The position numbers and the translations under genes are program-made. A stretch of DNA of 64,000 bases. Source: a candidate division FCPU426 bacterium. GTDB lineage: Bacteria > Oederibacteriota > Muellerivitia > Muellerivitales > Muellerivitaceae. Below, one piece after another: positions 1,207 to 33,647 of this stretch. The DNA lies in assembly GCA_963738405.1 (NCBI GenBank), contig CAVTWJ010000009.1:310580-374579 (forward strand), written 5' to 3'. Positions within the stretch are counted from its first letter, which is position 1, and every line of letters starts with the position of its first letter. Below the pieces are notes generated by a model. It ran no database searches. It was not told the origin of the DNA and saw nothing but the letters and a program-made list of their open reading frames with translations.

Positions 1207-1264
1207 TCGATTGAACAGGCCCCAACCCCACGATATCTCCCCTGAATTTAACGCTGGAGGCAGG

Positions 1265-4200
1265 ATGACCCCCGTCAGCAGTTCCTTGTCCAGCGAAACC
1301 CAAACTTCCACCTCGCCCTTTTATGACCTTCTGCAGCAAATCCCCCTTCAATGTTTCGAGAAGGACAGGCTATTAGAATCCGAGCTGATCGGAGTCCAGG
1401 TTTACCCGGAAAAGGCCCTACTGATCCTGCGCATCAAAATGCCCGCAGCCATACCCGGTGCCACCTACGCGATGCTGAGCCAATACCTCAAAGAAGGCAT
1501 GCCGGGGGTTCAAAGGGTGGTTTTGGACGTTCATTACGCCTCTACCGAAGTATCCCTAGTGGATTACCTGGGCGCCCATGAGAAAGACCTGATGTTCTGC
1601 CTGACCGAGGAAGCGGACGTGGCGGAGGGGTGGTTTACCCATTACCGAATGGAACCCCAAGATAACCGCCTCTCCTTTCAGGTTCCCCATGAGCTGGCGC
1701 GCCAACAGCTAGACCGCAAGCAATGCATGAAAGTTCTTTCCGATCTCTTGCAACAGCGCTGCGGTTTTAAAGGCGCGGTGGAGCTTTCCATCAACCCCGA
1801 TATCCTTCCCCAAGCCGTGGCCCCGGCCGAGGAAGCACCTTCCGAATACAAGGTTCCCGAACCTCAGAGTGTTTTGATCTTGGGCCGCAAAATTTCCGAG
1901 GCTGCCCAATCCATGACGGTGAGTGACGAACAAAAGGGCTATGTGGTGCAGGGAGAGATCATATCCTTCGACCAGCGGCAGACCCGCACGGGCCGCCACA
2001 TGATCAAGATGACGGTCACCGATTATTCCGACTCCATGGACGTGATCCTGTTCCACGAGAACGACGGCAAGTTCAAGGGCGGCATTAAAGAAAGGGACTG
2101 GGTAAAGGTGCGGGGCGACTTGCGTTTCGACAGCCGGGACCCGAACGAGATGTTGTTAAATGTCCGCGACATCGTGAAGATTCCGGCGCCTGAAACCCGC
2201 ATGGACCGAGCCGCTGAGAAGCGCGTGGAGCTTCACTGCCATACCCAAATGAGCCGTATGGACGGACTTTCCAAGATCGACCGCCTCATTGAGACCGCCG
2301 CCAAGTGGGGTCACAAGGCCATCGCCATCACTGACCACGGCGTGGTGCAGGCCTACCCGGAAGCCAGCGCGGTGGCGAAGAAGAACAAGATCAAATTGAT
2401 TTTGGGCATGGAAGGCTACCTGGTCGATGAGTTCAAACGCGAAAAGGGCATGCCCATCTACCACATCATTCTTCTGGTGAAGAACCGGGTGGGACTGAAA
2501 AACCTATATAAATTGGTGTCTGAAAGCCACTTAAGAAACTTCTATAAAAGGCCCCTGATTCCCCGGGAACTTTTGAAACAGCATCGGGAAGGGCTGGTGT
2601 TGGGATCGGCCTGTGAACAAGGCGAGGTTTGGCAGACCCTGCTTCACGGGGGAAGGCCCCTGGAAGAAGTGGCCGACTTTTACGACTATGTCGAGATTCA
2701 GCCCTGCGCTAATAACGAGTTCATGATCCAAGACGGCATCGTAAAAAGCCTAGAAGAGCTTCAGGCCCATACACGAACCCTTTTTGATGTGGGGAAAAAG
2801 CTGGGCAAACCGGTGGTGGCCACGGGCGATTCGCATTTCATTGAGCCTCGGGATGACGTGTACCGCAAGATCATTCATGCCGGCATGGGCTACGGTCTGG
2901 AACGCCAAGCGCCGCTTTATTTCAAGACCACCGACGAATTGAAAAAAGATTTTGAATATTTTGGCGAGGAAACCGCCCACGAGCTGGTAGTGACCAACCC
3001 AGGCAAGATCGCCGACATGATTGAAGAAGTAGAGCCCCTGCCCACCCAGACTCTATCCCCCATGTGGGAGGGCGCGGACGAGTTGTTGCGGGAAACTTCC
3101 ACAAAAGAAGCTCATCGCTTATATGGGGAAACCCTCCCGGCCTTTATTGAACAGCGCCTCAAAAAAGAACTCGACGCCATCATCAACAACAAATTCTCCA
3201 CCCTCTATGTGATCGCCATGAAGCTGGTGAAAAAATCCCTCTCTGACGGCTATATCGTGGGAAGCCGGGGAAGCGTGGGATCCTCCTTCGTGGCTTTCTT
3301 GAGCGGCATCACCGAGGTGAATCCGCTTCCGCCCCACTACCGCTGCGAGGCCTGCCAGGTGAACGAGTTTCCCGCCAACCCCGTCTCCATGGCGGGCGTG
3401 GACATGGTGGTCAAGGACTGCCCCCAATGCGCCAAGCCCATGGTTCGGGACGGTTTTTCCATCGCCTTCGAGGTCTTCATGGGTTTCAAGGGCGACAAGA
3501 TGCCCGATATTGACCTGAACTTTTCCGGCGAGTACCAGCATGTGGCGCACAAGTATGTGGAAGAACTGTTCGGCAAGGAACACTGCTTCCGTGCGGGCAC
3601 CATCTCGGCGGTGCAGGATAAGATCGCCTTCGGCTTCGTGAAAAAATTCGTGGAGCAGGCGGGCCGTACCACAAGAAACGCAGAACTGAACCGGCTGGTA
3701 AAGGGTTGTTCGGGCGTTTCAAAAACCACGGGTCAGCATCCCGGTGGGATCATCATCCTTCCCAAAGATATGGAAATCACCGACGTCTGCCCTGTGCAAT
3801 ACCCAGCGGATAATAAAGATGGCGATATCATCACCACGCATTTTGATTTCAGCTCCATGCACGACTGCTTGGTGAAGCTCGACATTCTCGGTCATGACAA
3901 TCCCACCAGCCTGAAGCGCCTAGAAAATATGACAGGTATTTCGGCCCTGGGGATTCCCTTAAACGATGAAAAGACCATGAGTCTTTTCTCCGGCGTAAAG
4001 GCCCTTGGATTGAAAGAGAAAATCGAGAAAGACTTAGGAACTCTTGGTGTTCCCGAATTCGGCACCAACTTTGCCATGGACATGTTGCGGGACACCCGCC
4101 CCACCCGCTTTGAGCATCTGGTGAGGCTTTCGGGACTTGCCCACGGAACGGATGTCTGGCTGGGCAACGCCCAAGACCTCATCAAAAAGGGAACGGCCAC

Positions 4201-4930
4201 GCTTTCGACGGTCATTTCCACCCGCGACGACATGTTGAACGACCTCATGGCCCGTGGCATGGACTCCGCCCTAGCCTTCAAGGTGATGGAAGACGTACGC
4301 AAGGGCAAGGGGTTGAAGCCTGAGTACGAGCAGACCATGATGTCGGTCAAGACGCCCGGCTGGTACATCGACAGCTGTAAGAAGATTAAATACATCTTCC
4401 CCAAGGCCCATGCGGTGGCCTACTGCATCATGAGTTTCCGCATCGCTTGGTTTAAGGCCCACCAACCCCTGGCCTTTTACGCCGATTATTTCACCAACAA
4501 GGCATTTGGCTTTGACGCTACCGTGGCCTGCGACGGCCTGGGACGGGTGCGTGACCGCATCAAGCTGATCCGTTCTATCGAGAAACCCTCCAACAAGGAA
4601 CTGGACGAGGCATCGGTTTTGGAAGTGGTGGAAGAAACCTATGCACGGGGCTTCCGGTTCCTGCCCGTGGACCTTTATAAGTCCGACGCGCGCCAGTTCT
4701 TAATTCATGAAAGCCAAGGTGAAAAGATGCTCCGCCCCCCCTTGATCGGGCTTCCGGGGTTGGGAGATACGGCGGCCGATTGGATCGTGTTAGAAAGGGA
4801 GAAGGGTCCCTTTACCTCCATTGAGGAAATTCAAGAACGCTGCGGGGTCAATAAAAACGTGTTGGAAATCCTGAAAGGCCATGGATGCCTGAAGGATATG
4901 CCTGATTCTAAACAGGTTTCTCTTTTTTAG
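1265..4930 (+). CDS. polC: PolC-type DNA polymerase III alpha, without the inserted 3'-5' exonuclease domain
   Basis: N-terminal domain, OB fold before the PHP domain, ELHCHTQMSRMDG, AITDHG, VGSRGSVGSS, Zn finger (CEAC..CPQC), PDIDLNF, TTGQHPGG, KLDILGHD. GGAGG RBS precedes ATG 1265. Confidence 0.95.
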   Translation: MTPVSSSLSSETQTSTSPFYDLLQQIPLQCFEKDRLLESELIGVQVYPEKALLILRIKMPAAIPGATYAMLSQYLKEGMPGVQRVVLDVHYASTEVSLVDYLGAHEKDLMFCLTEEADVAEGWFTHYRMEPQDNRLSFQVPHELARQQLDRKQCMKVLSDLLQQRCGFKGAVELSINPDILPQAVAPAEEAPSEYKVPEPQSVLILGRKISEAAQSMTVSDEQKGYVVQGEIISFDQRQTRTGRHMIKMTVTDYSDSMDVILFHENDGKFKGGIKERDWVKVRGDLRFDSRDPNEMLLNVRDIVKIPAPETRMDRAAEKRVELHCHTQMSRMDGLSKIDRLIETAAKWGHKAIAITDHGVVQAYPEASAVAKKNKIKLILGMEGYLVDEFKREKGMPIYHIILLVKNRVGLKNLYKLVSESHLRNFYKRPLIPRELLKQHREGLVLGSACEQGEVWQTLLHGGRPLEEVADFYDYVEIQPCANNEFMIQDGIVKSLEELQAHTRTLFDVGKKLGKPVVATGDSHFIEPRDDVYRKIIHAGMGYGLERQAPLYFKTTDELKKDFEYFGEETAHELVVTNPGKIADMIEEVEPLPTQTLSPMWEGADELLRETSTKEAHRLYGETLPAFIEQRLKKELDAIINNKFSTLYVIAMKLVKKSLSDGYIVGSRGSVGSSFVAFLSGITEVNPLPPHYRCEACQVNEFPANPVSMAGVDMVVKDCPQCAKPMVRDGFSIAFEVFMGFKGDKMPDIDLNFSGEYQHVAHKYVEELFGKEHCFRAGTISAVQDKIAFGFVKKFVEQAGRTTRNAELNRLVKGCSGVSKTTGQHPGGIIILPKDMEITDVCPVQYPADNKDGDIITTHFDFSSMHDCLVKLDILGHDNPTSLKRLENMTGISALGIPLNDEKTMSLFSGVKALGLKEKIEKDLGTLGVPEFGTNFAMDMLRDTRPTRFEHLVRLSGLAHGTDVWLGNAQDLIKKGTATLSTVISTRDDMLNDLMARGMDSALAFKVMEDVRKGKGLKPEYEQTMMSVKTPGWYIDSCKKIKYIFPKAHAVAYCIMSFRIAWFKAHQPLAFYADYFTNKAFGFDATVACDGLGRVRDRIKLIRSIEKPSNKELDEASVLEVVEETYARGFRFLPVDLYKSDARQFLIHESQGEKMLRPPLIGLPGLGDTAADWIVLEREKGPFTSIEEIQERCGVNKNVLEILKGHGCLKDMPDSKQVSLF

Positions 4931-15407: not shown

Positions 15408-15424
15408 TGTAAAATTATTTTACG
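15408..15424. promoter_or_regulatory. TGTAA-N7-TTAC box upstream of the membrane-protein/activator operon
   Basis: TGTAAAATTATTTTACG, the same motif as the two boxes at 17731 and 17760. Confidence 0.55.
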
Positions 15425-15465
15425 CTTTGCGTTAAATAGGTTTGGGGGAATCTTTGAAGAAAACA

Positions 15466-15843
15466 ATGCTCAAGAATGTGGATTGGGGCGGATTAACCAT
15501 CGTCAATCTTCTAGGAGTCTTGGCTTTCCCGCCCTATTTTATCTACCTCATGTCGATGGCGGCCCTGACCGCTTACGGCTTTCTCTATACGACCCATCTT
15601 TCCGAGGCCCAACAACAGCGCCTGATCGAGTTCGAGAAGGAATTCCGAAAGGGTTACAAGCGGGAGAAAGACGGCGACATCCGGGGCGCCATCGCTTGGT
15701 ATCACCAATTGGAAAAAGACTTCGCGGACATGCCCCAAGCTTCCAAACTCGCCACCCTGCAGATTCAGAAACTGGAGAAAGAAGGAAAGGCCTCCTCCGC
15801 AGGTAAGTCCAAGAAGCGCAAGCCTATGGGAGGAAAGTCATGA
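15466..15843 (+). CDS. small membrane protein with a TPR-like C-terminal helix pair
   Basis: Hydrophobic N-terminus, then [27 protein letters not shown] overlap with the next gene. Confidence 0.7.
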
Positions 15844-17735
15844 ACTCCCCCTGCCGCGAATGCGGCCAACCCCAGGAAGCGCTCCACCGGTTTTGCCCGG
15901 TTTGCGGGATTCCCCAGGCCCCCCCGGGCAAAATAACCCTGGAAGGCATGGAAGCCTTTGAGCAGGGGGAATATGAAAAGGCCTTGAAGCTTTTTAAAAC
16001 CGTCGCCAAACGTAATCCTCAGGATCCCTTCGCCCTGCGCGACGTGGGCCACGCGGCTTTTCACCTTCAAGACCTGACCCAAGCCCTGGAGATGTATCGG
16101 AAAGCCATTCAAATCCAGCCCAATCTGCTGGATGCCCAGTTCAATCTGGGGCTCGTTCATCTTCAAAGGGGCCAAGTCCATGACGCCATGTACGCCTTTT
16201 TGGAAACCTTGAACCTCATCCATCCGCTCACCCCCGGCTCCTATTATCTCGGCCTTTTTCACAGCGCCCCGACCCTCACCCTCCAATGCCGTTTGAATCT
16301 CGGCGGGCTTTTTAAAGAAAGGGGCGAGTTGGAAAAGGCCCTGGAGCAGTACCGGCTGGCGGCCGAGGCCTGGCCCCGCAATATATTGGCACAGGGAAAC
16401 CTGGGGGACTGCCTGATGGCTTTGGAAAGATTCGATGAGGCTATGACGGTCTACAAACGCGCTCTCAAGCTTGCGCCCGAGGGGCCCGACCGGTTGAATC
16501 TAAAGAACGATTTAGGGGTGTCCTATTTCAGGCGCGGGGAGATGGAAAAGGCGGTGGAAGAATTCAAGGCGGTGCTTCAACAGGACCCCGGAAACGTCAA
16601 TGCGGCTTACAATTTGGGCCAGCTCTACCGGCAGGAAGGGCAGTCGGAACGGATGCGGAAGGATTTTGAGGAATTCGTCCGGGGCTCGAATGACGGAGCC
16701 TCGATCCTTTTCGCCCTAACCAAATCAATGGTGTCCACCGCCGCCACCTCCTCGAAAAACCTAATCCAGGAGGATCAGGGGCTGGTGGGGGCCAGTCCGG
16801 CCTTGAAGAAGGTCCAAGATTTGATCAAGCGGGCGGCCTCGGCGGACGCGACCGTTCTTATTTTGGGGGAGAACGGAACGGGCAAGGAGGTGGCCGCAAG
16901 AGCCATTCACCAGCAATCCTCCCGTCACGACAAGGCTTTTGTCCCTATCGCCTGCTCGGTGCTGAGCGAGTCATTGCTGGAGAGCGAGCTTTTCGGCCAC
17001 GAAAAGGGATCCTTTACCGGGGCCTTGGACCGGAAGATTGGGAAATTTGAGGCCGCCCAGGGCGGGACGGTGTTTTTGGACGAGATCGGGGAACTGAATC
17101 TTTCCACCCAGGTGAAGCTGTTAAGGGTCCTGCAGGAAAGGGAGTTCGAGCGGGTGGGGGGGACCGAACCGGTCCGGGTCGACATCCGGGTCATCGCGGC
17201 CACGAACCGCGACTTGAAGCAGGCCATCCAGAGCGGCCGGTTTCGGGAGGATCTTTTTTACCGCCTCAATGTGATCGCGGTGGAGATGCCTCCCTTGCGT
17301 GAGCGGGAAGGCGACCTTTCCCTTCTGGTGCGCCACTTTCTCGAGAAGCAGAGTCAAAAGAGGCACCACCGTTTTGAGGGGCTTTCCCAGCCCGCCATGG
17401 AAATTTTGAAGCGGTACCGATGGCCCGGAAACGTTCGGGAATTGGAAAACTTGATTGAGAGGGTCGTCACCCTTAATGACGATGTGATGATCCGCCCGGA
17501 GCATCTTCCCCCCGAAATCATGGGAGGGTTGGCCTCTTCCGCGAATTCAGGGGCGGGGTTTCCGGGAACAGGGGTATTGGCGAACATGGAAAGGGACATC
17601 ATCGAAAAGGTTCTCAAGGAAACCAGGTTTAATAAACGCAGGGCCGCGGACCGTTTAGGCATCAGCCGGCCTACCCTCTATCAAAAACTGAAGCGTTATG
17701 GCCTCAAGCAAACGGCCGATAAACGGAAAGTGTAA
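15840..17735 (+). CDS. sigma54 enhancer-binding protein with N-terminal Zn ribbon and TPR repeats, no receiver domain
   Basis: CRECG..FCPVCG, multiple TPRs, [48 protein letters not shown], Fis-type HTH ([16 protein letters not shown]). Confidence 0.92.
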
Positions 17736-17776
17736 AAAAAAGTTACTTTAAAAATATAGTGTAAAATATATTTACA
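17731..17776. promoter_or_regulatory. tandem upstream activator sequences (TGTAA-N7-TTAC)
   Basis: TGTAAAAAAAAGTTACT (17731-17747) and TGTAAAATATATTTACA (17760-17776), about 135 and 106 bp upstream of the predicted sigma54 start site. Confidence 0.7.
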
Positions 17777-17846
17777 TATTTTGAATTGGGTTATCGGTCG
17801 GGTCATCCGAAACCCTTATATTTTAATGGTTTTTATGACAGCCTTT

Positions 17847-17863
17847 TTGGCATCGCGATTGCA
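17847..17863 (+). promoter_or_regulatory. sigma54 -24/-12 promoter
   Basis: TTGGCATCGCGATTGCA with exact GG-N10-GC spacing, near the TGGCAC-N5-TTGCA consensus. Confidence 0.85.
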
Positions 17864-17873
17864 TTAAAGTGTA

Positions 17874-17962
17874 GATGACCAGCTGGAAACAGTTAGTCAA
17901 TCAACGAATCAAAAAAACTCACCTCCTAGAAGCCCCGGATTGACCCATCTGGGGCTTTTTTT
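17874..17962 (+). ncRNA. predicted sigma54-dependent small RNA with an anti-SD motif
   Basis: Starts about 12 nt after the -12 GC. 5' stem TGACCAGCTG-GAAA-CAGTTAGTCA, A-rich linker with CTCACCTCCT, terminator AGCCCCGGAT/ATCTGGGGCT plus T-tract; no credible ORF inside. Confidence 0.7.
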
Positions 17963-18020
17963 ATTTGGGGATAGGGGTTTTCCCCTTGTTATAGTGCTTT
18001 CCCACGATAACCCTTGGAGG

Positions 18021-19160
18021 ATGCTCCTGAACGCCCCAGTAGTGATTGCCCTTATTTCCTTCGCTCTATCCCTTGGATTGACCCCCCTTTTCCGCAAAAT
18101 CGCTCTTAAATCCCAATTTTTAGACAGCCCCTCGGGACAGCTTAAGAAACACACCGCCCCCGTCCCCTATATGGGGGGGCTCGCCATTTATTTTTCCTTC
18201 CTTTTGACTCTCTTGGGGGTTTTGGTCTTGTCCCCTCCCGTGGAAGCCGGTCGTGTCTTAGCCATCTTTATGGGAGCAACCATCATGGCGCTATTGGGGT
18301 TTGTGGATGACTTGTTTTCCCTTTCGCCCATGGTGAAGTTCTTTTTCCAATTTTTAGCCGCGGGGCTTCTGGTGGTTTTTGGCGTCCAACTTGAATTTTT
18401 ACCGGGCCATCCGCTCCTCGCCGTCATTCTCACCATTCTTTGGGTGGTGGGCGTCACCAATGCGGTCAACTTGATCGACATCATGGATGGGCTGGCGGGC
18501 GGGGTGACGGCCCTCGCTTGCTTAGGGTTCGTCCTCGTCCCCTTTTTGGGAAGCCAAAGTTATGTTCCCTTAACCGCGGCGGCTTTGGGGGGGAGCGTGC
18601 TGGGCTTTTTGCCCTACAACTTTCAGCCAGCGCGCATCTACATGGGCGATTCGGGCGCGCTTTTTTTGGGATACACCCTCGCGGGGCTTGCCATGGGGCA
18701 CGGCTACAGCCAAGTGAACGTTTTGGCCCTGTGCGCTCCTGTCCTCATCTTGGGGATTCCCCTCTACGACACGATTTTGGTGATGGTCCTTCGCGCCTTG
18801 AAGGGCCGGTCCATGTTTCAAGGGTCCAATGACCACCTGGCCTTGCGGCTTCGCAAAATGGGCCTGACGGTGAAACAAACGGTGCTCAGCCTCTGGGCGA
18901 TTTCAGCCCTACTGATACTCGCCGCAGGGGGGCTGGTCCGTTTTACGGAAAAAAGGGCTTTCGCGTTTTTATTGGTTTTGTTCGTGATCGGCATGATCTT
19001 TACCCTCGTCATCGCCAGCGTTTCCATGGGCGAATCCGGAACGGCTCCCCCCAAAAAGCGGACTCCCCGGCGGGGCGACCCTTCCGACCCTGCCGTGACA
19101 CTGTCCCTAGCCGCCCGTTCCCGCTCGTCCCAAAAAAATCCCCGGGTTCGTAAAAAATGA
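18021..19160 (+). CDS. MraY/WecA/TagO-family polyprenyl-phosphate GlcNAc-1-P transferase
   Basis: VPYMGGLAI, GFVDDL, NAVNLIDIMDGLA, YMGDSGA, DHL; GGAGG RBS before ATG 18021. Confidence 0.9.
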   Translation: MLLNAPVVIALISFALSLGLTPLFRKIALKSQFLDSPSGQLKKHTAPVPYMGGLAIYFSFLLTLLGVLVLSPPVEAGRVLAIFMGATIMALLGFVDDLFSLSPMVKFFFQFLAAGLLVVFGVQLEFLPGHPLLAVILTILWVVGVTNAVNLIDIMDGLAGGVTALACLGFVLVPFLGSQSYVPLTAAALGGSVLGFLPYNFQPARIYMGDSGALFLGYTLAGLAMGHGYSQVNVLALCAPVLILGIPLYDTILVMVLRALKGRSMFQGSNDHLALRLRKMGLTVKQTVLSLWAISALLILAAGGLVRFTEKRAFAFLLVLFVIGMIFTLVIASVSMGESGTAPPKKRTPRRGDPSDPAVTLSLAARSRSSQKNPRVRKK

Positions 19161-24975: not shown

Positions 24976-25050
24976 TGGGGCGTCGACAAGCGGTAAGTCA
25001 CCAGATTTTGGATCTGGCATTCGTAGGTTCGAATCCTACCGCCCCAGCCA
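24976..25050 (+). tRNA. tRNA-Gln (TTG)
   Basis: Acceptor TGGGGCG/CGCCCCA, anticodon arm CCAGA-TTTTGGA-TCTGG, GGTTCGAATCC, encoded CCA. Confidence 0.97.
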
Positions 25051-26301: not shown

Positions 26302-27570
26302 TTGAGCGAGTCCAACGCATACGGCGCCATTGAGGCGGTTTGGCGCATCGAGTCCTCCAGGATTATCGCGGCCCTCGCCCGCATGACGCGGGACGTGGGA
26401 CTGGCGGAGGACCTCGCCCAAGAGGCTCTGGTGGCCGCGCTGGAGAAATGGCCCCAAACCGGAATCCCAGACAAGCCGGGCGCCTGGCTCATGACCACCG
26501 CCAAGAACCGGGCCCTGGACCTGTTCCGCCGCAAGGCGATGCTAGATCGCAAGCACAACGAACTGGGAAAGGAATTGGATGAACGTATGGAAAGGACCTG
26601 GAAGGAATTCGGCGAAGAAATGGATGACGACATCGGCGACGACCTTTTGCGCCTGGTCTTCATTTCCTGCCACCCGGTCCTTCCTCCCGAAGGCCGGGTC
26701 GCTTTGACCCTGCGCCTGCTGGGGGGCCTGACGACCCAAGAAATCGCCCGGGCTTTTTTAGTTTCCGAACCCACCGTCGCCCAGCGCATCGTGCGGGCCA
26801 AGCGGACCCTGGCCGAGGCCCAGGTGCCTTTCGAAGTGCCCCGGGGAACAGAACTGGCCGAACGTCTTTCCTCGGTGCTCGCGGTACTTTATCTCATCTT
26901 TAACGAAGGCTATTCGGCTACCGCCGGGGAGGATTGGCTCAGGCCCGCCCTTTGCGAGGACGCACTGCGGCTGGGCCGCGTTTTGGCGGGCCTGGCCCCC
27001 CAAGAACCCGAGGTCCACGGCTTGGTGGCGCTGATGGAAATACAGGCCTCCCGTTTCGGAGCCCGGGTCGGTTCCGGTGGAGAACCGGTGCTCCTCATGG
27101 ACCAGAACCGGGCCCGTTGGGACCACCTTCTGATCCAGCGAGGACTGGCCGCCCTGGAAAAGGCCGAGTCGTTTTCGAAGGTACGGGGTCCCTACACTCT
27201 GCAGGCCGCCATCGCCGCCTGCCATGCCCGGGCCAAGACGGCCGAAGAGACCGATTGGAAACGCATCGTGGCCCTTTATGACGAATTGGGAAGGATAGCT
27301 CCTTCCCCCATCGTGGAACTGAACCGGGCGGTGGCGCTCTCCATGGCCTTCGGCCCCGCCGTGGGGCTGGAACTAATCGACCAACTGGCCGCCGAACCAA
27401 CGCTTAAGAATTACCACCTCCTGCCCAGTGTCCGGGGCGACTTTTTGGCCAAAATGGGCCGCTTCCAAGAGGCGCGGGTTGAAATGGAAAGGGCCGCGGC
27501 CCTCACCCAGAACGAGCTGGAGCGCAAAATGCTCCTGAAGCGCGCGGCCTCCATCGCCGCCGGAAATTAA
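26302..27570 (+). CDS. ECF42-group sigma factor with C-terminal TPR extension (paralog A)
   Basis: AEDLAQEAL..WP..G.PDKPGAWL..AKNRALD, LRLVFISCHP, LYLIFNEGY, DW..IV.LYD, LNRAVA; next to DGPF genes. Confidence 0.92.
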   Translation: MSESNAYGAIEAVWRIESSRIIAALARMTRDVGLAEDLAQEALVAALEKWPQTGIPDKPGAWLMTTAKNRALDLFRRKAMLDRKHNELGKELDERMERTWKEFGEEMDDDIGDDLLRLVFISCHPVLPPEGRVALTLRLLGGLTTQEIARAFLVSEPTVAQRIVRAKRTLAEAQVPFEVPRGTELAERLSSVLAVLYLIFNEGYSATAGEDWLRPALCEDALRLGRVLAGLAPQEPEVHGLVALMEIQASRFGARVGSGGEPVLLMDQNRARWDHLLIQRGLAALEKAESFSKVRGPYTLQAAIAACHARAKTAEETDWKRIVALYDELGRIAPSPIVELNRAVALSMAFGPAVGLELIDQLAAEPTLKNYHLLPSVRGDFLAKMGRFQEARVEMERAAALTQNELERKMLLKRAASIAAGN

Positions 27571-32372: not shown

Positions 32373-33647
32373 ATGAGCGACATACCTGGTTTAGTGGACC
32401 ATCTTTTCCGCCGAGAGTCGGGGAAGATGGTTTCTTATTTAACCCGCGTTTTCGGCTTCAGCCGGCTCAATATGGCTGAGGACGTGGTGCAGGATACCCT
32501 CATCAAGGCCCTGGAGGTCTGGCCCTTCCACGGCGTGCCCGACAACCCCTCGGCCTGGCTCATGCGGGCCGCCCGCAACCGGGCCATCGATATCATCCGC
32601 CGAGACAGCCGTTTCAAGCTTGCCGCGCCCGAACTCGCCCACCTCCTCAGGCTCCGGGAAGAGGAAAGCGGGGAGGTGCCGATTCCCGACCAAGAAATCC
32701 AAGACGCCCAGCTTCGAATGATGTTCTCCTGCTGCCACCCGGACTTAACCGCCGACTCCCAGATCACCTTGATTCTCAAGACCCTCTGCGGGTTCAGCGT
32801 TTCGGAAATCGCGCAAGCCCTCTTGAGCCGGGAAGATTCGGTTGAGAAACGCCTGGGCCGCGCCCGCAAGACCCTTCGCGATTCCGGCACCTTTGTCGAA
32901 CTCACCGAAAATTCCGATATTCCCAGCCGCCTGGAGGCGGTATATCAGGCCCTCTACCTGCTTTTCAACGAGGGCTACCACGCCAGCCGGTCCGACCGCA
33001 AGGAACCCGAAGACTTATGTTATGAAGCCATCCGGCTGACACTACTTCTCGGCGAGCATCCCCAAGGCCAGAAGCCCAAAACCTTTTCCCTTTTGGCCCT
33101 CATGTGCCTGCACGCCGCGCGCCTGCCGGGCCGCACGGCTGACGATGGAAGCCTGATCCAGCTTGAATTTCAGGATCGCGCTAAATGGGACAGGTTCCTT
33201 ATGGGCCAGGGGTTTCATTATCTTGAAAAGGCAAGGGAAGGGCATTCCGTCAGCGAATACCTGGTGGAAGCCAGCATCGCCGGGCTCCACTGCGAGGCCA
33301 AGACCTATCAGGAAACCGAATGGGGAAGAATTTTGGAACTTTACGACCTGCTATACCACCTGAAACCCTCACCCGTGGTGGGCTTGAACCGGGCCATCGC
33401 GGTGGGTAAAGCCAAGGGGCCCGAGGAAGGGTTGGCCGAACTGGGCAGAATTACCGACGCCGGGAAGCTGAAGGACTATCCCTTTTACCCGGCGGCTTTT
33501 GGGGAATTCCATTTACTGGCGGGAAGGCATGAAGAAGCGGGGAAGCATTTTGAAAAGGCCATGGGCCTGGCAAGAAATGAGCACGAGCGGGACTTTTTTG
33601 AAAAGAAGAGAGGAGTTCCCTCAAACCGAATTTCTGAAAAGGACTAG
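32373..33647 (+). CDS. ECF42-group sigma factor (paralog B)
   Basis: DHLFRRESGKMVS, AEDVVQD, PDNPSAWL, LRMMFSCCHP, LYLLFNEGY, LNRAIA. Confidence 0.92.
   Translation: MSDIPGLVDHLFRRESGKMVSYLTRVFGFSRLNMAEDVVQDTLIKALEVWPFHGVPDNPSAWLMRAARNRAIDIIRRDSRFKLAAPELAHLLRLREEESGEVPIPDQEIQDAQLRMMFSCCHPDLTADSQITLILKTLCGFSVSEIAQALLSREDSVEKRLGRARKTLRDSGTFVELTENSDIPSRLEAVYQALYLLFNEGYHASRSDRKEPEDLCYEAIRLTLLLGEHPQGQKPKTFSLLALMCLHAARLPGRTADDGSLIQLEFQDRAKWDRFLMGQGFHYLEKAREGHSVSEYLVEASIAGLHCEAKTYQETEWGRILELYDLLYHLKPSPVVGLNRAIAVGKAKGPEEGLAELGRITDAGKLKDYPFYPAAFGEFHLLAGRHEEAGKHFEKAMGLARNEHERDFFEKKRGVPSNRISEKD

Follow-up and report, generated by a model that had tools for sequence, protein, structure and literature searches.

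We report a small RNA (sRNA) gene of about 89 nucleotides (nt) that lies directly downstream of the gene for a sigma-54-type enhancer-binding protein (hereafter the activator) in a candidate division FCPU426 bacterium of the GTDB phylum Oederibacteriota. The stretch of DNA analyzed, 64,000 nt of contig CAVTWJ010000009.1 in assembly GCA_963738405.1 (positions 310,580 to 374,579, forward strand), is called the window. What was observed, in the window and in loci from related genomes, is the gene with its structure, its link to the activator module and its conservation. In the interpretation that we prefer, at odds slightly better than even (a probability of roughly 0.55), this is a stand-alone regulatory sRNA gene driven by the activator and sigma-54, whose product would block ribosome-binding sites.

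A conserved sRNA module behind the activator gene

Related loci were sought in species-representative genomes with an alignment (A1) of the N-terminal 310 residues of 13 activator relatives, because a full-length query would draw in every sigma-54 activator. The scan gave 17 loci, of which 15 are orthologs and two are weak matches to the TPR part only (L016 and L017). One ortholog, whose contig stops within the activator gene (L011), was left out. The remaining 14 loci have usable downstream DNA and come from different uncultured species, with activator N-terminal regions that are 51-81% identical; together with the window they form the 15 sources to which the counts below refer.

The whole module, consisting of activator-type dyads, a sigma-54-type promoter, a 5' hairpin, the linker motifs CGAAYCAAA...CUCACCUCC and a terminator with a GACCC loop (Table 1), is present in 15/15 sources, and in 13 of the 14 related loci its elements follow in the same order as in the window within 330 nt after the activator stop. 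A covariance model (R1) built from an alignment of the eight most similar sequences (A3) found exactly one strong match in each source. For the seven sources outside the training set, the scores were 95.6 bits (L002), 58.8 (L005), 51.5 (window), 49.4 (L008), 43.6 (L014), 41.8 (L012) and 37.4 (L013). Twelve weaker matches (E = 0.0024-0.62) comprise ten on the plus strand upstream of activator operons, which correspond to the 3' end and terminator of pnp, and two on the minus strand over the sRNA terminators of L007 and L010. With filters off, no paralogous copy of the sRNA was found in the 64 kb window, where the next-best match reached 17.3 bits (E = 0.05).

Table 1. Positions of the module and of its neighbouring features (window numbering unless a locus is named)
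Feature	Position	Strand	Remarks
sRNA gene, ~89 nt	17874-17962	+	predicted start 17874, 12 nt downstream of the C in the -12 GC
5' hairpin, GAAA loop	17874..17902	+	from the predicted fold; helix 1
Conserved unpaired motif CAACGAAUCAAAA	17902..17914	+	family consensus AAACGAAUCAAAA, core CGAAYCAAA
Unpaired anti-Shine-Dalgarno-like CUCACCUCCU (CTCACCTCCT in DNA)	17918..17927	+	contains CCUCC
Intrinsic terminator	17928..17962	+	13-pair stem, loop UGACCC, then U-tract
Sigma-54-type promoter TGGCATCGCGATTGCA, TGGCAT-N5-TTGCA	17848..17863	+	GG at -24/-25, GC at -12/-13
Proximal activator box TGTAAAATATATTTACA, perfect dyad	17760..17776	.	-114 from the predicted start; TGTAA-N7-TTAC at 17760-17775
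Distal activator box TGTAA-N7-TTAC	17731..17746	.	about -143 from the predicted start; overlaps the activator stop codon
Activator (enhancer-binding protein, 631 aa)	15840..17735	+	open reading frame; stop TAA 17733-17735
Conserved small open reading frame, ~129 aa	15454..15843	+	start TTG 15454; listing of the open reading frame begins at 15442
Single activator-type dyad TGTAAAATTATTTTAC	15408..15423	.	just 3' of the pnp terminator, ~30 nt before the small open reading frame
Junction dyads in relatives	L001:229, L002:3494, L006:3540, L007:3500, L009:3507, L012:3506, L013:1099		strict pattern
Extended -10-like motif TGTTATAGTGCT	17987..17998	+	3' of the sRNA terminator, before the wecA-like gene
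Glycosyltransferase family 4 (WecA/MraY-like) gene	18027..19160	+	neighbour only; Pfam Glycos_transf_4, 4.8e-35

In the window, the RNA from 17874 to 17964 is predicted to fold into the 5' hairpin, an unpaired linker and the 13-pair terminator at -31 kcal/mol (z = -5.05; 0/200 shuffles fold as well). The pattern TGTAA-N7-TTAC occurs four times at three sites in the window, against 0.08 matches expected, and 0/100 shuffles reach four. The remaining elements are less distinctive when taken singly. The promoter TGGCATCGCGATTGCA is the sole exact match to TGGCAY-N5-TTGCW in 64 kb (0.15 expected by chance), yet at least one exact match occurs in 13/100 shuffles, which makes it weak on its own; allowing one mismatch gives two matches against 3.7 expected. 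The anti-Shine-Dalgarno string CTCACCTCCT, with up to one mismatch, has five matches in the window against 3.7 expected and is not significant alone, nor is the terminator call (17928-17959 followed by a T-run), since the scan returned four sites in 2 kb where 4.3 were expected. Within the window, the dyads and the fold stand out and the promoter and anti-Shine-Dalgarno strings by themselves do not; the combination exceeds chance because it is kept in the relatives, not by virtue of within-window statistics.

Conservation of pairing was assessed on an alignment of all 15 sequences that was guided by R1 (A5; pairwise identity 0.39-0.92). Standard pairs fill 93% of its cells, 16 of the 22 pairs show changes on both sides, and 0/500 shuffles reach any of five measures, while slid controls pair in 28-57% of cells. 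Both-side changes affect 11 of the 12 pairs of helix 1, and 98% of the cells of helix 2 are paired. Compensatory changes without a conserved reading frame are what a structured non-coding RNA should display, and they are found here, less strongly on an alignment of the eight closest sequences (see below). Single-sequence folds (n = 14) gave the three-part layout cleanly in 11 cases, partially in L013 and differently in L008 and L014; the layout recurs though the sequence of the 5' hairpin is unrelated between sub-groups.

Sequence conservation is highest in AAACGAAUCAAAA, CUCACCUCC, the terminator stem and the GACCC of the terminator loop. The mean share of the consensus base is 0.86 in the AAACGAAUCAAAA motif and 0.87 in the CUCACCUCC stretch, compared with 0.55-0.58 in the arms of helix 1 and 0.22-0.33 in the spacers. 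CCUCC occurs in 13/15 sequences, the longer CUCACCUCC in 9/15, and GACCC within the terminator loop in 15/15. The predicted probability that the CCUCC core is unpaired is at least 0.98 in 12/15 sequences and 0.80, 0.81 and 0.63 in the others. Terminators in all sequences have a GC-rich stem of 10-13 pairs and 7-9 U residues. Two features expected of a trans-acting base-pairing sRNA of the Hfq type are present: intrinsic termination with a U-tail, and a conserved seed that is predicted to be accessible. A drifting but compensated helix next to fixed unpaired motifs looks like a base-pairing or protein-binding sRNA, and unlike a coding region or a mere terminator. In the two most divergent homologs (L012:6042-6132 and L013:3810-3904), the loop of the 5' hairpin also carries UGACCC.

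Upstream of the RNA, TGGCA-N6-TTGC is found at the equivalent place in 15/15 sources when these are aligned on the predicted start, and TGGCATCGCGATTGCA has its GG and GC 10 nt apart as in the -24/-12 pattern TGGCAC-N5-TTGCW. Activator sites of such promoters are looked for about 100-150 nt upstream, and the family dyads, GTGTAA-N7-TTACAC, lie about 115 and 144 nt upstream. The proximal box is at -114 to -128 in 15/15 sources; a second box stands 29-30 nt further upstream in the 10 sources in which both pass the strict 17-nt pattern, and in the other five one dyad is strict and a degenerate second half-site is visible. A conserved T-tract near -55, picked out by eye as a possible IHF site, was rejected as it misfits the IHF consensus.

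Across the 15 sources, strict dyads are confined to the sRNA promoter and to the junction between the pnp terminator and a small open reading frame (ORF) that precedes the activator gene. The junction dyad is strict in 7 of the 14 related loci (sequence context inspected for six), and the window's own copy at 15408 was picked up by the shorter pattern TGTAA-N7-TTAC. Its placement suggests that it is likely an autoregulatory site, through which the activator would also control its own synthesis from the small-ORF/activator operon. LuxO of Vibrio, which represses its own gene, offers a parallel.

The activator consists of a CxxC...CxxC zinc ribbon, a TPR sensor region, a sigma-54 AAA+ domain and a Fis-type helix-turn-helix (HTH). 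Pfam matches comprise Sigma54_activat (8.7e-71, residues 315-481), AAA_lid_14, a C-terminal HTH_8 (6.3e-15) and many TPR; no match to Response_reg was found, the N-terminus being made up of the zinc ribbon and TPR. The sigma-54 contact loop reads GSFTGA, a variant of the GAFTGA type, and this loop and the DNA-binding HTH are what a cognate AAA+ activator should carry. Among the best 120 clusters listed, 71 are full-length relatives with the same TPR and AAA+ architecture (at least 93% query coverage, 39-85% identity), nearly all from metagenomic sources; below them in the same set are receiver-domain NtrC-type proteins that align over the AAA+ half only (48-57% query coverage). In L002, a 268-amino-acid (aa) ORF without a Pfam match (L002:5877-6683) intervenes between activator and sRNA module, and the boxes and promoter sit behind it, that is, they stay with the sRNA.

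The stop codon of the small ORF overlaps the activator ATG (ATGA). At its N-terminus the product is predicted to be hydrophobic, and the remainder is helical and TPR-like. The protein is about 120-150 aa long in relatives and is 50-67% identical in nine of them (alignments A6/A7). It has no Pfam match at 1e-3, and only weak TPR-like leads were obtained (E ~0.03 in two of ten members; Atlas scores below 0.9). It may be a membrane input partner of the TPR activator.

An Rfam 15 scan gave no family at threshold over the sRNA in the window, whose only match is a transfer RNA (tRNA) at 24976, and none in the 14 related loci. A permissive scan of 17700-18050 returned at best a rimP leader (20.5 bits against a threshold of 47) and NsiR1 (19.1 against 39), and these matches are terminator-driven noise. 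No published description of the sRNA family was found in a literature search of sources other than subscription journals. Because the module is conserved, its pairing is kept, no ORF is conserved across it and no Rfam family matches, the sequence comparison indicates a real sRNA family, not described before, to which a zinc-ribbon/TPR enhancer-binding protein is dedicated.

An earlier note, made from the letters of the window alone, had proposed an independent, sigma-54-type sRNA gene with an exposed anti-Shine-Dalgarno sequence, controlled by the adjacent activator and not recognised as a known family. Inspection of the window finds every element that it listed, and the independent sigma-54-type gene, its link to the activator, the conserved unpaired CCUCC stretch and the lack of an Rfam match all stand up in the comparison described above. 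The CGAAYCAAA motif, the GACCC loop and the third box at 15408 had been overlooked.

Mode of action and competing explanations

Activator-dependent sigma-54 transcription is the obvious reading of the locus because of the promoter class, the placement of the dyads and the adjacent activator with its Fis-type HTH. The activator, which we infer to bind these particular dyads at about -115 and -144, would use ATP to open the sigma-54 holoenzyme at TGGCAT-N5-TTGCA, and the strong intrinsic terminator would end transcription. In the resulting RNA, a 5' hairpin would give protection, about 25 nt with the motifs CGAAYCAAA and CUCACCUCC would be accessible, and the GACCC-loop terminator hairpin would follow. 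The accessible stretch would most likely pair with the ribosome-binding regions of at least one messenger RNA (mRNA) elsewhere in the genome and block initiation. The organism uses GGAGG-type sites: a Shine-Dalgarno match of at least 5 nt precedes a candidate start in 23 of the 58 window ORFs, a count that is biased upward by the choice of the best-matching start for each ORF. Inspection of the linker by eye for an (ARN)n motif of the Hfq type gave nothing convincing, and no claim is made of it.

Several observations weigh against this interpretation. Neither rpoN nor hfq is among the 58 ORFs of the 64 kb window. The DNA searched for mRNA targets, namely the window and about 9 kb per locus for the 14 related loci, yielded none. 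The best non-self duplexes on both strands of the window reach about -24 kcal/mol and map within genes or to their antisense strand, away from starts; the values for the eight start regions tested are weaker, at -10.6 to -18.9 kcal/mol. The top duplex matches in 13 loci, each searched with its own linker (L013 yielded none), fall at non-homologous places. Sequences complementary to the conserved motifs turned up in the window and the loci solely on the opposite strand of the sRNA. The distance that separates the two linker motifs differs by as much as about 8 nt among the sequences, and this speaks against pairing in a single uninterrupted duplex. As to the structure, A5 was fitted to R1, which favours pairing, and on a sequence-only MAFFT alignment of the eight closest sequences 89% of cells pair with modest covariation: six pairs change on both sides, a number reached by 63/500 shuffles, and the covariation score is reached by 7/500. 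Finally, the whole neighbourhood is syntenic (ribF-rpsO-pnp-small ORF-activator-sRNA-glycosyltransferase family 4 (GT4)-FAD amine-oxidase-like), so the position next to the activator does not count as separate evidence genome by genome.

The missing target is unsurprising, because less than 2% of a typical genome was covered. Translational repression through AGGAGGUGAG-type sites, the mode of action put forward in the earlier note, is nevertheless the part of its interpretation that found no matching target in the window or the 14 loci, in contrast to the sRNA gene itself, its linkage and its conservation. The neighbouring GT4 gene was considered as a target and rejected: its start region offers only GGAGG, with five pairs at -12.8 kcal/mol.

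Alternatively, the RNA could act by binding protein, with its unpaired motifs and GACCC loop serving as recognition sites through which an RNA-binding protein is titrated or guided; the sigma-54-dependent CrcZ acts in this way on Hfq in Pseudomonas. Such an explanation is unlikely but has evidence in its favour. GACCC recurs in every terminator loop, and UGACCC in the 5' loop of L012 and L013, which is unusual for a plain terminator; the varying spacing of the linker motifs suits separate sites, and base-pairing targets were not found locally. On the other hand, each linear motif occurs once per RNA, while known sponge RNAs repeat theirs; the RNA has no CsrA-type GGA motifs, CCUCC is the typical counterpart of ribosome-binding sites in base pairing, and no candidate partner protein was identified.

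It is rather more doubtful that the element is a leader acting in cis, in which the sigma-54 promoter would serve the wecA-like/oxidase operon, the terminator would be a regulated attenuator and the short RNA a by-product. The element does lie close to the GT4 gene on the same strand, and in at least 12/15 sources GT4-type coding sequence comes next after the sRNA. The GT4 gene has a conserved GGAGG-N6-CTG (GGAGGAnnCCCCTG, 18015-18030 in the window, which also has an in-frame ATG at 18021), from which CTG is the likely start codon. In 10/10 modelled read-through RNAs, its Shine-Dalgarno sequence is mostly paired (unpaired probability at most 0.22); with the weak CTG, this makes the gene look tightly controlled, and the two features together suggest that translation from this start is weak and may be regulated.

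The terminator, by contrast, speaks for a separate RNA, as its GC-rich stem of 10-13 pairs and its 7-9 U residues are kept in all sequences. An extended -10-like motif, TGTTATAGTGCC, stands 22-78 nt 3' of the terminator in 10/15 sources, with near-variants in three more, and probably belongs to a separate promoter of the wecA-like gene. Apart from this motif, no conserved sequence was found between terminator and GT4 gene in the 15 sources, and the terminator lies between 52 and 153 nt away from the Shine-Dalgarno sequence in the 10 modelled transcripts. Pairing between the anti-Shine-Dalgarno and the GT4 Shine-Dalgarno sequence is also inconsistent, reaching at least 0.25 per nt in three of the 10 modelled RNAs and at most 0.04 in seven. 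The extended -10-like motif, the varying distance and this inconsistent pairing favour a separate sRNA over a leader, and the separation of the sRNA from the wecA-like gene by the terminator, another point of the earlier note, is upheld by the strong stem and the conserved motif.

That the sRNA imitates the 3' tail of 16S ribosomal RNA (rRNA), and is not a regulator of specific targets, seems very improbable. Nine consecutive bases, UCACCUCCU, match the 16S tail in its canonical form, the host's own 16S gene lying outside the window. If the idea were true, firing of the membrane-linked TPR activator would release a burst of this mimic, which would either keep ribosomes off the strongest Shine-Dalgarno sites by competition or act as a decoy for a factor specific to the 16S tail. 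In both cases a genome-wide re-weighting of translation would be the sole output of a signalling pathway.

Least credible of all is that the region codes for a small protein or is a chance assembly of motifs without function: ATG 17875 does open a 22-codon ORF in the window and several motifs are individually no better than chance, but an ATG ORF of at least eight codons across the RNA occurs in only 3/15 sources, in differing frames, so the small-protein reading was rejected, and conservation with compensatory changes across 15 species excludes chance.

Relation to known sRNA systems

In Vibrio, qrr1 adjoins luxO, and the Qrr RNAs need Hfq. These RNAs have four stem-loops and exist in several copies, in contrast to one copy per locus, and one in the 64 kb window, for the sRNA described here; they show no sequence or model match to it, and LuxO is a phosphorylated response regulator while the activator here lacks a receiver domain. 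The logic is alike, at least as inferred here: in the Qrr system, an enhancer-binding protein and sigma-54 are required for the transcription of sRNAs that repress translation of their target mRNAs (bioRxiv 10.1101/2021.07.01.450815).

The closest system in layout is Pxr-nla19 of Myxococcus and relatives, in which the sRNA gene lies directly 3' of the sigma-54-dependent activator gene nla19 with its own predicted sigma-54 promoter and enhancer site; the RNA folds into stable stem-loops and is restricted to a single lineage (PMC5568312). The analogy with Pxr and nla19 drawn in the earlier note is accurate. Pxr differs in having three predicted stem-loops, where the sRNA here has two, and Nla19 is a response regulator, unlike the zinc-ribbon/TPR activator. 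The absence of a receiver domain and of an RNA model match indicates that the present system is not a member of the Qrr/LuxO or Pxr/Nla19 families; the Rfam 15 comparison takes in Qrr and Yfr1, and Pxr only if Rfam 15 includes it.

Yfr1 of cyanobacteria shares the RNA architecture: between its two stem-loops lie 16-20 unpaired nt with the ultraconserved C/U-rich ACUCCUCACAC (PMC2190773). It belongs to another phylum, differs in promoter type and motif and is shorter (54-69 nt); no Rfam match to it was found here. Sigma-54 activators with non-coding RNAs in their regulons are already known from Desulfovibrio vulgaris, whose sigma-54 regulome includes four non-coding RNAs; regulators of this sort are found mostly in species with a free-living habit (PMC4641369). 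The activator families there differ from the present one, and no homology is known.

The analysis adds a well-supported and previously undescribed sRNA family from a lineage that is known only from metagenome-assembled genomes and for which almost nothing is known of RNA regulation. It overturns no concept. It does outline a complete predicted circuit of a small membrane protein, a zinc-ribbon/TPR activator, enhancer boxes, a sigma-54 promoter and an sRNA. After Qrr1/LuxO and Pxr/Nla19, this would be the third independent case of a sigma-54 activator gene followed by its own sRNA, which suggests a recurrent design for converting signals to control at the post-transcriptional level. Both R1 and the dyad motif could serve in searches for the regulon and for further members.

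Other features of the window

The leader of the downstream GT4 gene forms a long hairpin of repeated GACAGTTGGCAG-like units in L004 (L004:6172-6300; -55.1 kcal/mol, z = -5.1), and similar sequence is present in L002; no significant structure was seen in the GT4 leaders of L003, L007 or the window.

Elsewhere in the window, positions 1211-4930 encode a PolC-type DNA polymerase III (NCBIfam PRK00448, 1385 bits), with rimP-nusA-infB-rbfA and an NrnA-like gene on its 3' side. The PolC type is notable where the records of some relatives read 'Proteobacteria bacterium'. Two paralogs of about 420 aa (26302-27570 and 32373-33647) combine an N-terminal ECF sigma-factor domain with a long C-terminal extension, and each is preceded by several small ORFs without a family match. 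The tRNA noted above, at 24976-25050, is a lone tRNA-Gln (anticodon TTG) and the sole Rfam/ARAGORN match in the window.

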